This document shows positions 2,815 to 9,227 of a DNA stretch of 16,758 nt, in pieces. Made by a program: the position numbers and the translations under genes. The notes under the pieces are model-generated. The model saw nothing but the letters and a program-made list of their open reading frames with translations, was not told where the DNA came from and searched no databases. Every line of letters begins with the position of its first letter. Position 1 is the stretch's first letter. The DNA comes from Candidatus Hodarchaeota archaeon (GTDB lineage: Archaea > Asgardarchaeota > Heimdallarchaeia > Hodarchaeales > Hodarchaeaceae): contig JAHQWW010000080.1 of the NCBI GenBank assembly GCA_029856365.1, forward strand, positions 1-16,758, written 5' to 3'.

Positions 2815-3969
2815 TTAAACTCTACCACTGAGAATTCCACGGAAATAGAACCGACTGAAATATTTTTTGATATAATAAAATAATCTGTTTGGAATATATC
2901 CTAAGCGGAGAGGAGGGCGTGTGTACGTAAAATCTAACACCATAGCTGAGGTTAATCCCATCATCACAAAGCATTGAGCGTGGCCGTTATATTTTGCGTT
3001 AAGTCTACCCTCTTTAATTAACCTTAGGATATTCTTGGAGGCAACTTTCGCTTGATAATGGGCAGTGGAACCAGCCTTAGATATTGGTAACTCAGTAGTG
3101 TCACCCACAGCAAAAATATTTGGATAAGCAATAGACTGTAACCGTTCTTTATCGACAATGACCCAACCTTGCTCATTTGCTAATTTACGATCATCAATAT
3201 AGGTTGCCCCCAGGTGTGGAGGAACAAGAATTAACAAATCGTAATTAACTTCTTCGCCTTCTAGAGAAGTAACTGCCTTTTTCTCGGGAATTATCTCCTC
3301 GGTGTTGAAGAATTCATGAAGTTCAATCCCCTTCTTCTCAAATTGCTTCTCGAATTTTTCGGAAGCTTGATCAATTGAAAAAGCTCCTCCAAGAGGACTT
3401 AGATAATGGATATTGACTTGTTCAAGCATTTTTCGACGCTTAAAATAGTGATAAAGCATGAATGTGACTTCAATAGGTGCAATAGGACATTTGTAAGGTA
3501 AATCAGCTACACCAGTGACTATGTTTCCACCTTCAAAACTTTCTAAGGCATCACGCAACTTAAGGGTGGCTTCTTCATTATAGAAGTGATGTGCTTCACC
3601 AGCATAACCAGTAACACTCTCATAATCATAACGGGCACCCGTAGCAATAACTAACCAATCATAGCAAATCTCATTGCCACTTTTGAATTGGACTACATGG
3701 TTCTGTGGATCTAAATGCACAACTTCCTCCATAAGAATTGAAACATTTTTGTTTACCACTTTACGGAGAGGTCTATATTGTTTTTTAAGGTCTTTTTTAT
3801 CAAATAACCGATAGATTAAGTCTGGTTCATAAAAAACATTCTCATTCTTTGATACAAGCGTGATATCAACCAGTTTTTTGGCCTTTCGTCCCAAAAGATT
3901 GGCAACAACGACACCACCAGTACCACCTCCGAGAATGACAATATGGGGCTTCTTTTGATTAGAATTCAT
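2815..3969 (-). CDS. sqr: Sulfide:quinone oxidoreductase-like FAD-dependent oxidoreductase (short, type III-like)
   Basis: GGGTGG Rossmann motif, ATG motif (IATGA), KCPIAPIE and HAQCF redox cysteines, VGD..LPISKAGSTAHYQA. Lies in a TusA/DsrE gene context. Confidence 0.82.
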   Translation of the reverse strand: MNSNQKKPHIVILGGGTGGVVVANLLGRKAKKLVDITLVSKNENVFYEPDLIYRLFDKKDLKKQYRPLRKVVNKNVSILMEEVVHLDPQNHVVQFKSGNEICYDWLVIATGARYDYESVTGYAGEAHHFYNEEATLKLRDALESFEGGNIVTGVADLPYKCPIAPIEVTFMLYHYFKRRKMLEQVNIHYLSPLGGAFSIDQASEKFEKQFEKKGIELHEFFNTEEIIPEKKAVTSLEGEEVNYDLLILVPPHLGATYIDDRKLANEQGWVIVDKERLQSIAYPNIFAVGDTTELPISKAGSTAHYQAKVASKNILRLIKEGRLNAKYNGHAQCFVMMGLTSAMVLDFTYTRPPLRLGYIPNRLFYYIKKYFSRFYFRGILSGRV

Positions 3970-4001: not shown

Positions 4002-4244
4002 CTATCTTACTTTTTTGACAACAAATCGAGTATGGCCGTTTTCTTCGAAAACACCAACCATCTCGTGGTTTGCTTTAGTCACCCATTTAGGAATATCCCG
4101 AATGGATCCAGCATCTTTACTCCAAACCTCGTAGATTTTACCGACTTCACCCTTCCTGATAGTCTTTATTAATTCCATCAAGGGGCCAGGACAATAACTT
4201 CCACGAGCATCAATAACTTGATCAGCAATAATTTCTTGACTCAT
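4002..4244 (-). CDS. tusA: TusA/SirA family sulfurtransferase
   Basis: IDARGSYCPGP (CPxP) motif and DAGSIRDIPKW. ATG 4244 (MSQEII) is preceded by AGGTGA; the track start is 4256. Confidence 0.9.
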   Translation of the reverse strand: MSQEIIADQVIDARGSYCPGPLMELIKTIRKGEVGKIYEVWSKDAGSIRDIPKWVTKANHEMVGVFEENGHTRFVVKKVR

Positions 4245-4258
4245 ATTCTTTTTCACCT

Positions 4259-4669
4259 CTAAATAGAAATAACTTGATCAGCTTTCATGGCTTCTTCTGC
4301 TAAGGTATTTACACCAGCAACATCATCCACGAAAGGTAAAAGGTCATCTTTCTCCAACCCCAAAATTTCAGTGATTTGTACACAAGCAGCAATTCGAAGA
4401 CCACCAAGATCCTTGAGATCCTCCAGCAGCTCCTTCCAATGAACGAGCTTGCCCTCTTTTCGTGCCTGATTAATCTTATTCGATACTTCTGGAAACACAC
4501 TAGTAATCTCAGGTTCAGGGGGAGCATCTTTTTTCAAGGCATAAACTGCATCATGCATGAAGAAGATGAACACTTCGTAATCACTTGTGATCGCACCAGA
4601 GGCAACCAACGCAACAGTCTGAAGTTTCTCTGTTGATCCAGAATCACATACTAAAACCAGTTTGGACAT
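4259..4669 (-). CDS. DsrE/DsrF-like sulfur relay protein
   Basis: EVFIFFMHDAVYAL, RIAAC and DDVAGV..L.E.A..ADQVISI follow the DsrE pattern; GAGG SD upstream. Confidence 0.82.
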   Translation of the reverse strand: MSKLVLVCDSGSTEKLQTVALVASGAITSDYEVFIFFMHDAVYALKKDAPPEPEITSVFPEVSNKINQARKEGKLVHWKELLEDLKDLGGLRIAACVQITEILGLEKDDLLPFVDDVAGVNTLAEEAMKADQVISI

Positions 4670-4704: not shown

Positions 4705-5214
4705 TTACATGAATAAAGTAATGTCAGCGTCTTTGGCAAACTCTAAGAACGAAGCAGCGCCACCAAGTTCGCAGCCATCGATAAGTTCCTCTTCTTTAAT
4801 CCCCATTACGTCCATTGTCATCTGACAACCAATCATACGAACGCCAGACTCCAGGCACACGTCGCGTAACTCCAAAAATTTGATTACATTAGCTTTTTTC
4901 ATCCAGCGATTCATCATCCAGGTTGCCATCCCAGTCATACCTGGGATCATCCCGATAATATTGGGAACTGGCATCGGTGCAGCTGGATTAGCAATAGGGC
5001 TCACCTTAAGTTTCTTACTTTTCTTCTTGTGGATTAAATTCAATCCATAAAAAGTAAAGAAAATTGCAACTTCCATGTCCATTGCTGCTGCTGTAGAAGC
5101 GAGAATTACTGGAGTGTAAGCAGCATCCAACGTACCAGCTGAAGCAATAATTGCCATTCGTTTGGGTTTCTCTTCACTGGGAAGAGTTATACTTTGAGAA
5201 ATAGATTCAGTCAT
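4705..5214 (-). CDS. DsrE2-type (DsrE/DsrF/DrsH-like) sulfur carrier
   Basis: GTLDAAY..ILASTAAAMD.EVAIFFTFYGL, GCQMTMDVMG and GGAASFLEFA..ADITLF are the DsrE2 pattern; GGTGA SD upstream. Confidence 0.9.
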   Translation of the reverse strand: MTESISQSITLPSEEKPKRMAIIASAGTLDAAYTPVILASTAAAMDMEVAIFFTFYGLNLIHKKKSKKLKVSPIANPAAPMPVPNIIGMIPGMTGMATWMMNRWMKKANVIKFLELRDVCLESGVRMIGCQMTMDVMGIKEEELIDGCELGGAASFLEFAKDADITLFM

Positions 5215-5232
5215 AATATCACCATTCGGCTT

Positions 5233-5469
5233 TTAGTTTCTTCTTCTAACCAGAAAACGATAATCTTTAGGTCCGAGCTCTTCCGCGGATATGAGTTCCT
5301 GGCCTGTGGTACGAGTCCAAGCTGGAATGTCCGCCATACTCCCAGGATCAGTAGTCAAAATCTCTAATACTTGGTTAATTTCCAAGGCTTTCAATGCCTT
5401 TTTTGATTTTAAAACAGGCATAGGACAAGACAAATTCCGTGCATCTAATGTTTGATGTACTTCAGTCAT
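5233..5469 (-). CDS. tusA: TusA/SirA family sulfurtransferase (first gene of the operon)
   Basis: LDARNLSCPMP (CPxP) and TDPGSMADIPAW motifs. Confidence 0.92.
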   Translation of the reverse strand: MTEVHQTLDARNLSCPMPVLKSKKALKALEINQVLEILTTDPGSMADIPAWTRTTGQELISAEELGPKDYRFLVRRRN

Positions 5470-5540
5470 TTTTCTATTCTTCCTCTATAATTCGAATCGA
5501 AATTATCGCCTTCCATTATCAAAATATGAAAGACCACGAA

Positions 5541-5654
5541 TGAACAGCTTAATCCCCTGAGTGAAAGATTGTCCGAGACGCAAAAGAATCAACATAACTG
5601 CTGTTTCTCACCCATAAAGGGAAGCGGTGACGTAATTAAGGACTAAGCTGTTCA
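5541..5654 (-). ncRNA. Putative structured cis-regulatory RNA in the 5' leader of the sulfur operon; family not recognised
   Basis: On the minus strand UGAACAGCUUAGUCCUU (5654-5638) pairs with GGGGAUUAAGCUGUUCA (5557-5541) to give 17 bp, 3 of them G-U. Internal hairpins are present, and it starts about 22 nt downstream of a TTTATAAA box. Confidence 0.55.
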
Positions 5655-5732
5655 ATGACCAAATGATCAATTTAATTTATAAATTTTGCCTAAATAGACA
5701 ATTTAAATGCTTGAGATTGCTCATATGGTCAA
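5655..5732 (-). promoter_or_regulatory. Promoter of the sulfur operon: TATA box with three phased 16-bp semi-palindromic operator boxes
   Basis: TTTATAAA at 5676-5683. Boxes are ATGACC-AAAT-GATCAA (5655-5670), TTGCCT-AAAT-AGACAA (5686-5701) and TTGCTC-ATAT-GGTCAA (5717-5732); their starts are 31 bp apart. Confidence 0.6.
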
Positions 5733-5887: not shown

Positions 5888-6180
5888 ATGGTTGTTACCG
5901 AAGAAATTTCTTTTCGGGTCATTTTTCAAACATTTATGGAACGATGTTTGGGGAATCAACAGGAGATTGTTCTCATAGCATTCCTTTTCTCAATTAGCCA
6001 CCTTCCCTCACACATCTTAAGTATTGGATTATTTCTTGGTTCGTTTCGCATTATGTATGCTTTTTATGGTGCATTGATGTATGGTTATGGTTGTTATCCA
6101 CTCGTAATCTCTGGGTGATTTCTGCTGCGCATATGTTTAATAATTCGACTAGTTCCATTCTTTATAACTTTCTAAACTAG
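5888..6180 (+). pseudogene. CPBP (CAAX protease/Abi) intramembrane metalloprotease remnant, frameshifted and 5'-truncated
   Basis: Frame 1 has EEISFR and FSISH. After a shift near 6085 a second frame reads WLLSTRNLWVISAAHMFNN...FLN* (stop 6178-6180), which is the C-terminal HxxxN motif. Confidence 0.7.
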
Positions 6181-8321: not shown

Positions 8322-8828
8322 ATGTTTGATAGATTTTGGAAGGATATAGATAAATATTTTGAAGAGTTTGGCCAAGATTTTGAACAAGCATTTAAAAAAT
8401 CGTTCAAGGGGCTATCTAAAGATTCTGAAAACTCACTCACATGGGGATATCGGATGTACTGGGATAATTCGATGAATAAACCTGTTATTAAATATTTCGG
8501 TAATTTTGATCCAACAACAGGGAAATTACTTGAAGAAGGATGGCGTATTCCTCCAATAGAAAAGAATTATGACGACAACAACAACATTTGGAATGTTGTG
8601 GTTGATCTTCCTGGAATCAAGAAGGAAAACATCAGCTTATCAGCAACGACTACCTATATTAATATCGAAGCAACATCCAAAAAACGAAAATACAAACACA
8701 AAGTGGACTTTGATCAGGAAATTGATCCTGAGTCTGTGAAGGCCAAATTTAACAATGGTATATTACAGATTTCGGTAAATCCTAAAATTCCCATAAAAAC
8801 GGAAGAGAAAAAGATATCTATTGAGTAA
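8322..8828 (+). CDS. hsp20: Small heat shock protein Hsp20 (archaeal type)
   Basis: VVVDLPGIKKENI, AKFNNGILQI and C-terminal I-x-I (KISIE); archaeal N-terminal WGY...PVIKYFGN segment. Confidence 0.92.
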   Translation: MFDRFWKDIDKYFEEFGQDFEQAFKKSFKGLSKDSENSLTWGYRMYWDNSMNKPVIKYFGNFDPTTGKLLEEGWRIPPIEKNYDDNNNIWNVVVDLPGIKKENISLSATTTYINIEATSKKRKYKHKVDFDQEIDPESVKAKFNNGILQISVNPKIPIKTEEKKISIE

Positions 8829-8846
8829 CAAATGGTGTATATATTC

Positions 8847-9227
8847 ATGAGCGAGAAAAAAAGAAAAGAAGCAGAAAAAATCCAAAAAGAAGTTGGAAAA
8901 AAAAGGAAAGAAGCTGTAAAACTTGAAAAGAAAGCAGCTGAAAAACGAAAAGAAGCGGAAAGCCTCGAAAAGGAAGCTGCAAAGAAGAGAGAAGAATCTG
9001 AAAAAAAGCGAATAGAAGAAGAATTGAAATCCCAGCGAAAGGCTGAGAAAACCCGATTAGAAGAAGAAAAAAGGAAAAAAAGTGAAGTTCTCAAGGGTGA
9101 AGAGAAAAGAAGCATTGAAGAGACTAAGAAAAAACGGGAAGCTGCTGAAAGGAATCTCAAAGCTGAAGAGAAAAGAAGTATTGAGGAGGCCAAGAAGAGG
9201 CGGGAAGTTGCTAAAAAGGAACCTTAA
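8847..9227 (+). CDS. Low-complexity E/K/R-rich helical protein
   Basis: Open frame with repeated units (AAEKRKEAE/AAKKREESE; EEKRSIEE twice). It follows hsp20 directly and is followed by a T-tract. The start is 8832 or 8847. Confidence 0.65.
   Translation: MSEKKRKEAEKIQKEVGKKRKEAVKLEKKAAEKRKEAESLEKEAAKKREESEKKRIEEELKSQRKAEKTRLEEEKRKKSEVLKGEEKRSIEETKKKREAAERNLKAEEKRSIEEAKKRREVAKKEP

Follow-up and report, generated by a model that had tools for sequence, protein, structure and literature searches.

What does a leader of 184 nt, counted from the predicted transcription start, do in front of a sulfur-relay operon of an Asgard archaeon? The window, by which is meant the whole stretch of DNA analysed here (16,758 nt), is a Hodarchaeales (Asgard) contig from a genome of 4.2 Mb that is 84% complete, and the nearest relatives of its DsrE2 and TusA are Hodarchaeales or Hodarchaeota, Asgard archaea. 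The operon lies on the minus strand, to which gene and RNA coordinates below refer unless the plus strand is named, in the order tusA, dsrE2, dsrE, tusA, SQR-like flavoprotein and Lrp/AsnC, and then come mvhG and mvhA-like hydrogenase genes. The first tusA (5233-5469; 78 aa; PF01206, E 4e-24) is followed by the dsrE2-like (4705-5214; PF13686, E 1.5e-52) and dsrE-like (4259-4669; PF02635, E 7e-10) genes, by a second tusA (4002-4256; PF01206), for which alignment of relatives points to the ATG at 4244 as the likely start, by the gene of the flavoprotein (2815-3969), whose nearest model is type III SQR at a score below cut-off, and by that of the Lrp/AsnC regulator with its Cys-rich tail (2219-2803). 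Ahead of the first tusA is the probable Shine-Dalgarno sequence AGGAAG (5479-5484), invariant in subclade A of the leaders described below, and this hexamer is enriched upstream of starts genome-wide (55 versus 14). The commonest enriched pre-start hexamers in the window genome are GTGAAA and AGGTGA, and the 16S tail of the genus is the standard archaeal one.

The genes and their surroundings have features worth recording in their own right. The C-terminus of the Lrp protein (2219-2300) has a CX3CX2C Cys motif that may serve to sense metal, Fe-S or persulfide. The operon is a mosaic (L101, L104 and L020 versus L100, L103 and L105); in G007 and G017 DsrE is at 58-59% identity, with tusA and dsrE2 at 83-96%, and leader type does not go with DsrE type. 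Upstream of the promoter, in an AT-rich stretch, the plus strand has a fragment of 76 codons (5888-6118) that matches a CAAX-protease (Rce1-like) family and is likely a gene remnant, and at 8832-9227, also plus strand, a highly charged ORF of Lys/Glu/Arg repeats stands directly 3′ of an Hsp20-like ORF (8322-8828). Many Heimdallarchaeia (L110-L129) have frames of 250-410 aa, often in tandem pairs, in which a rhodanese-like stretch is fused to a TusA domain that shares up to 85% identity with the window TusA. At 2225 nt the 16S rRNA match of L188 (G007:C9:1695-3919) is longer than those of relatives, which are about 1475 nt, and this implies an inserted piece of some 750 nt, perhaps an intron.

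Is the leader folded, and is the fold kept? The preliminary description placed a 17-bp stem, 5654-5638 with 5557-5541, at the front of the message, and both arms can be read directly there; its three non-Watson-Crick pairs (5643/5552, 5639/5556 and 5638/5557) are all G-U, as had been said. In this closing stem, P1, the partner of the predicted first nucleotide is 5542, a span of 112 nt. Folding of both strands against shuffles gave -39.6 kcal/mol for the minus strand (z -3.06; 1 of 200 shuffles as good) and -30.9 kcal/mol for the plus strand (z -2.35). DNA, protein and contig searches yielded 24 orthologous leaders, that of the window included, which are grouped as subclade A (eight, with the window), B (four), C (three), a loose set D (seven) and a sister lineage (L172 and L182). 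The comparison with relatives that had been proposed as a check speaks for P1, which is kept, with compensatory changes, in 22 of the 24; the two leaders of the sister lineage are without the domain, and in L135 and L174 the stem is kept with its outer 2-3 pairs open, i.e., with the first 2-3 nucleotides unpaired. In the other 20, GRAYAG (+1 to +6) is paired along its whole length with CURUUC. Variation is absent at five of the six outer positions; position 4 is C-G seven times, U-A twelve times and U-G once, and position 2 is A-U in 16 and G-U in four. Pairing has no consistent extension upstream of +1: pairs 1-6 are formed in all 20 anchored orthologues, pairs -2 and -4 in five. Measured from +1 to the nucleotide paired with it, the domain spans 110-113 nt in 19 of the 20 and 102 in the remaining one (SD 2.4 with that outlier included), and the spacer to the tusA start codon varies from 43 to 74 nt (SD 9.9). 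With covariation taken from sequence-only MAFFT alignments, P1 outdoes 500 of 500 shuffles in covariation score, in the number of cells paired and in two-sided changes, and it outdoes every slid register too, these controls being of a kind that ignores relatedness; concerted changes reach pair 16. G-U exceeds A-C in the stem by 22 to 7 and the z of the sense strand is the lower in 20 of 22, and therefore the pairing is at the RNA level on the operon strand, which bears out the earlier surmise of a sense-strand structure under selection. Several AU-rich orthologues have a low predicted P1 probability in the full leader. A fully paired 5′ end is found in 7% of 150 promoter-like leaders of the window genome, no more often than in shuffles; for the window leader the value is 1.00. 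The fold is real, a conserved domain of about 113 nt at the predicted front of the message in one Asgard genus.

Beyond P1, subclade A has a second hairpin (5508-5534), 86% paired and weak in G012 and L168, with two-sided change in six of its seven pairs in the subclade A alignment. A further 6-bp stretch complementary to +1 to +6 is found at 5413-5418, a fixed place in the tusA coding region. It corresponds to the Pro-Val-Leu codons after the active Cys of TusA, and the codon pair in question is found in 17 of 24 orthologues, as against 21% of Pro-Val pairs genome-wide and three of nine paralogues; shared ancestry or codon bias may account for it.

Where would this message start, and what would govern its synthesis? 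The TATA box TTTATAAA, at 5676-5683 as claimed, can be read directly from the sequence, and positions -31 to -23 are conserved in 20-23 of 23 orthologues. The predicted +1 is G5653, 23 nt after the box and the place where the conserved pairing starts, and T-1 and G+1 are present in all 23. A 16-bp palindrome, scored by a leave-one-out PWM across the 23 orthologues, is found three times around the box, in positions conserved across the genus. The copy at 5655-5670 (-17 to -2) adjoins the start site and is found in 17 of the 23; that at 5686-5701 is over the BRE position and scores above 5 bits at exactly -48 in 16; the third (5717-5732), at -79 from the predicted +1, is at the same position in eight. 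It is because the nearest box ends at -2 that sequence just upstream of the stem is conserved. The period of -17, -48 and -79 is exactly 31 bp, three helical turns, with 62 bp from box 1 to box 3, and sites of the Lrp family are two or three helical turns apart (PMC2995911); the three boxes thus have the semi-palindromic form and spacing of an Lrp operator array. They are probably the operator of the operon's own Lrp, whose binding is predicted, and with such spacing and an Lrp gene in the operon the signal would probably enter via Lrp. The control regions of the Ss-LrpB type likewise have three semi-palindromic boxes, three turns apart, beside an Lrp gene (PMC2995911). Here, however, the boxes are 16 bp, have another consensus and straddle BRE, TATA and start site, with Lrp binding at the level of prediction, and the likeness concerns the promoter, not the RNA. 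The operator PWM gives no extra boxes within the leader downstream of +1, and an operator regulon is not definable by it since genome-wide matches are mostly inside genes.

What of the nucleotides that P1 encloses? The inner hairpin, at 5609-5584 as first described, is the apical part of an imperfect central hairpin (5573-5621) whose probability is 0.81 in the window and 0.95-0.96 in the three closest relatives, where any substitution is G-U/A-U compatible or falls in the loop. To its sides are the single-stranded motif GUCACCG (5625-5631) and the motif CUUUCACUCA (5558-5567), each invariant only in subclade A (8/8 leaders), and both unchanged even in the two leaders of that subclade in which the central hairpin is replaced. 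The window domain is 91-92% identical to those of G014, G009 and G017 (subclade A1), while in the same comparisons fourfold-degenerate sites are 44-61% and the spacer 57-69% identical. As judged from such identities, the interior is under purifying selection within subclades. Between subclades its identity is 45-50%, i.e., at background level, and therefore there is no shared ligand core; nor is any interior position conserved genus-wide, the best beyond the stem being 15/20. All interiors fold (z -1.3 to -4.6), though they are unrelated between subclades. In subclades A and B alike the closing stem is followed by a single strand, the central hairpin and another single strand, and in B the central hairpin covaries at the same place (four sequences only); C and D have other interior layouts. 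A fixed length of 110-113 nt with a replaceable interior is unusual.

Is the domain mobile or widespread? The preliminary description had raised the thought that many copies in unrelated contexts would indicate a MITE. There is a single copy in the window genome and in each genus genome carrying the operon, always at that operon, and therefore the domain is not a MITE. A model of subclade A gave one match in each of seven genus genomes among 121 searched, and a genus-wide model one strong match in 11 of 22 genomes, which are precisely the ones with the operon; as nine of those 11 were in the training set, what is informative here is that there are no second copies and no matches where the operon was not found. 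Weak matches of the model elsewhere in the genus (E 0.0015-0.2) have no promoter, are often inside genes and were judged to be chance. Orthologous operons of other families are without the domain, and viral contigs have no exact match to the promoter-stem pattern. Fast-evolving divergent tusA paralogues (L014:1633, L136:3001 and L192:3001; about 70% identity) have leaders with 3′ remnants only of a subclade A leader, in three lengths and without promoter or 5′ arm, that of L136 with an interior of 86-89% identity; we read them as leftovers of a duplication. In four distant orthologues of the class a short hairpin begins 24 nt beyond the TATA box, as picked by eye, and an automated TATA pick for distant orthologues gave a mixed result on this. 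Another family (L265-L284), with the order tusA-sqr-tusA-dsrE2 and a leader of apparently about 22 nt, has a conserved palindrome just after the TATA box, more likely a different DNA operator than an RNA hairpin. Other distant orthologous operons (L246, L247, L249, L250, L252, L253, L254 and L256) have, directly upstream of the ribosome-binding site, short hairpins 15-65 nt long, which are either RNA hairpins or DNA operators.

Is the leader then the switchable cis-regulatory RNA that was originally suggested? The motifs of the supposed switch are in place, GGGUGAGA at 5613-5606, UCACC at 5630-5626 and UUUCACUC at 5566-5559, and as far as the window goes the exclusive pairings are close in energy, with alternative inner folds at -37.7, -37.5 and -36.3 kcal/mol, all within 1.4 kcal/mol. 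They are not, however, kept in relatives. In G014, G009 and G017 both alternatives are 3.6-5.2 kcal/mol above the main fold with a probability <0.01; in G006 and G007 the GGGUGA motif is GGGUUA, the GGUGA match is lost and the alternatives again have a probability <0.01; G012 is without the GGGUGA motif, in L168 no more than 5-6 bp of the match to the downstream partner is left, and the other subclades have unrelated interiors. RNAalifold on six subclade A sequences favours the downstream pairing as consensus with zero two-sided changes in it, so this pairing is possible, if unproven. Behind P1 there is no U-rich terminator, the maximum being 2-6 U in 8 nt, and accessibility of the window's Shine-Dalgarno region is 0.65 with the domain and 0.65 without. 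With the alternatives not conserved, no terminator and, in the window, no effect of the domain on the ribosome-binding site, the suggestion of a switch is left without support. The impression that no known family is involved was right: the best Rfam E-value is 0.15, to an unrelated family, with nothing at gathering and E-value thresholds in the window or in five diverse orthologous loci, and ARAGORN found no tRNA in the window. A metabolite- or ion-sensing riboswitch, in which GGGUGAGA would alternate between two partners, could draw on those near-equal folds in the window genome, on the 91-92% identity within subclade A1, on a 5-bp UGRGU/ACUCA pairing possible in seven of eight subclade A leaders and on the location upstream of a metabolic operon. 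Like the Moco/Wco RNA and the SAM classes it is structured, covarying, single-copy and directly before a cofactor or sulfur operon. Yet, unlike them, it has no Rfam match, ligand core, conserved alternative fold, terminator or conserved anti-SD. Conserved ligand-contacting nucleotides are lacking genus-wide, the invariant motifs being confined to subclades, and an expression platform is absent; the domain is in one genus, whereas the operon is class-wide, and signal input is probably already covered by a protein regulator. As of 2021 the fluoride riboswitch was the only one shown experimentally in archaea (PMC8241225). A riboswitch is very improbable here, and the domain is most probably no small-molecule aptamer.

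Could the 113-nt closed domain instead be cut off, or terminated, and persist as a small stable RNA acting in trans, the transcript having two functions? Small stable RNAs with paired ends include 6S RNA, Y RNA and the archaeal H/ACA and C/D guides, and the likeness extends to closing stem, fixed length and, in subclades A and B, a stem with two single strands and a hairpin flanked by frozen single-stranded motifs; CUUUCAC, moreover, is complementary to the top pre-start hexamer of the genome, GTGAAA (90 versus 13). But the domain is co-transcribed with the operon and never found away from it, C and D are laid out otherwise, the motifs differ among subclades, no U-rich terminator marks a 3′ end after P1, and 21 of 22 resemble the 16S tail no more than shuffles do. 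There is no Rfam match, Ro-binding bulged helix or conserved rRNA complement, and no kept bulge-helix-bulge, C/D or ACA signature. Boxes of C/D or H/ACA guides are absent or sporadic, with ACA directly after P1 in 1 of 22; matches to 16S, the rRNA that was searched, are only 8-12 nt and mostly contain G-U, so that an rRNA guide was set aside; and for a bulge-helix-bulge or circular RNA there is one 3-nt bulge, in the window fold only, with pairs upstream of +1 unconserved. Release of such an RNA is on balance unlikely. Refolding, driven by protein or temperature, in which pyrimidine-rich strands of the opened domain would pair with the tusA ribosome-binding site and so control translation, is a little more doubtful. 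In silico deletion of the 5′ arm does lower accessibility of the site in several leaders (window, 0.65 to 0.43; G017, 0.64 to 0.33; G004, 0.81 to 0.34), and G003 and G018 match their own site over 9-12 bp (p 0.03 and 0.01, uncorrected among 22 tests), but in the other 20 leaders shuffles match as well (p 0.07-0.89; 0.21 in the window), and the position of the match is unconserved. Mimicry of the anti-SD or 16S tail was likewise not above shuffles. Might the arms matter as DNA, as a pair of inverted half-sites for a protein, some 113 bp from each other, or as old termini of an insertion or invertible segment? The invariant outer positions and fixed spacing fit this, as does the probable DNA-operator palindrome just after the TATA box in the other family of the class, against which stand the G-U bias, the concerted changes to pair 16, the one copy per genome and the lack of operator PWM matches downstream of +1, and interiors never match in reverse orientation, which tells against an invertible segment; the chance of a DNA-level element is slim. 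Slightest of all are the prospects of a leader peptide or of an N-terminal TusA extension missed in annotation. Three of four A1 leaders do have a uORF of 8 codons with Cys as its last, and gene callers extend some TusA to 118-120 aa, but uORF start, frame and length are not common across subclades, G018 and L132 are without AUG in the domain, and in-frame stops and shifts of frame occur often. In many leaders the 3′ arm shares the tusA frame, but G014, G009, G017, G012, L170 and L184 break it, and with in-frame stops so common a frame hypothesis was rejected.

What then is the domain for? By analogy it appears to work most like a 5′-terminal stabiliser, in an unusual long-range, length-conserved form, and we rate at about an even chance the reading that the leader is a domain that occludes the 5′ end and stabilises the mRNA, with lineage-specific recognition motifs. 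A dimeric regulator, probably the operon's Lrp, would switch the operon at the DNA level via the three palindromes around TATA, and transcription would start at G5653. The first 6-17 nucleotides would then pair with nucleotides about 96-113, as the covariation argues, to give a closed domain with no free 5′ end; so buried, that end may escape 5′-end-dependent nucleases and the polycistronic message would be longer-lived. The interior would have to fold and yet be replaceable. The most likely reason why the single-stranded motifs are frozen within subclades is recognition by a protein or a partner RNA, which may tune decay or translation. In bacteria paired 5′ ends stabilise mRNA or slow its decay (PMC3997798), and archaeal aCPSF2 is a 5′-end-dependent exonuclease (PMC3792030). 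The window genome encodes aCPSF1 and two more beta-CASP or RNase J-like proteins, the matches being below family cut-offs. Pairing from the first 1-2 nucleotides, as in the stabiliser stem-loops of E. coli ompA and papA and B. subtilis aprE (PMC3997798), holds at the predicted +1 in 20 of 24 leaders; shared too are a long leader with a separate open ribosome-binding site and a structure kept while sequence varies, which is so here between subclades, whereas within them sequence is constrained. Different are the archaeal host, the closing stem, which is long-range with a constant span of 110-113 nt where the bacterial leaders have a local hairpin, and the frozen subclade-specific single-stranded motifs, and stabilisation itself is here inferred. 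It counts against a stabiliser that in methanogens removal of a 5′ stem-loop altered translation and not stability (PMC5499594), and that a 20-nt hairpin would suffice to hide a 5′ end; protection alone leaves the fixed span and the within-subclade constraint unexplained. A further reading is possible, though we hold it only tentatively: the 113-nt domain would be gauged by its size, with a sequence-conserved terminal helix and an exchangeable interior, and a co-evolving partner, which might be a nuclease, a ligand or one of the operon's proteins, would recognise it. Sulfur status would thereby be coupled to decay or translation of the operon, or else the domain would be released as an RNA acting in trans.

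Literature searches found no published description of the domain and no cis-regulatory RNA for Asgard archaea or for this operon, and Rfam does not hold it either; almost no cis-regulatory RNAs of Asgard archaea have been described. We know of no cultured host for the genus, and the reach of the finding is limited to one genus and to a proposed function. Even so, a covariation-supported leader, a predicted operator array and a regulator together provide a concrete construct with which to study control of mRNA life and translation in Hodarchaeales, and, if the domain is indeed a module gauged by its size, it would represent a type of post-transcriptional regulator new to archaea, and this in the lineage that stands nearest to eukaryotes.
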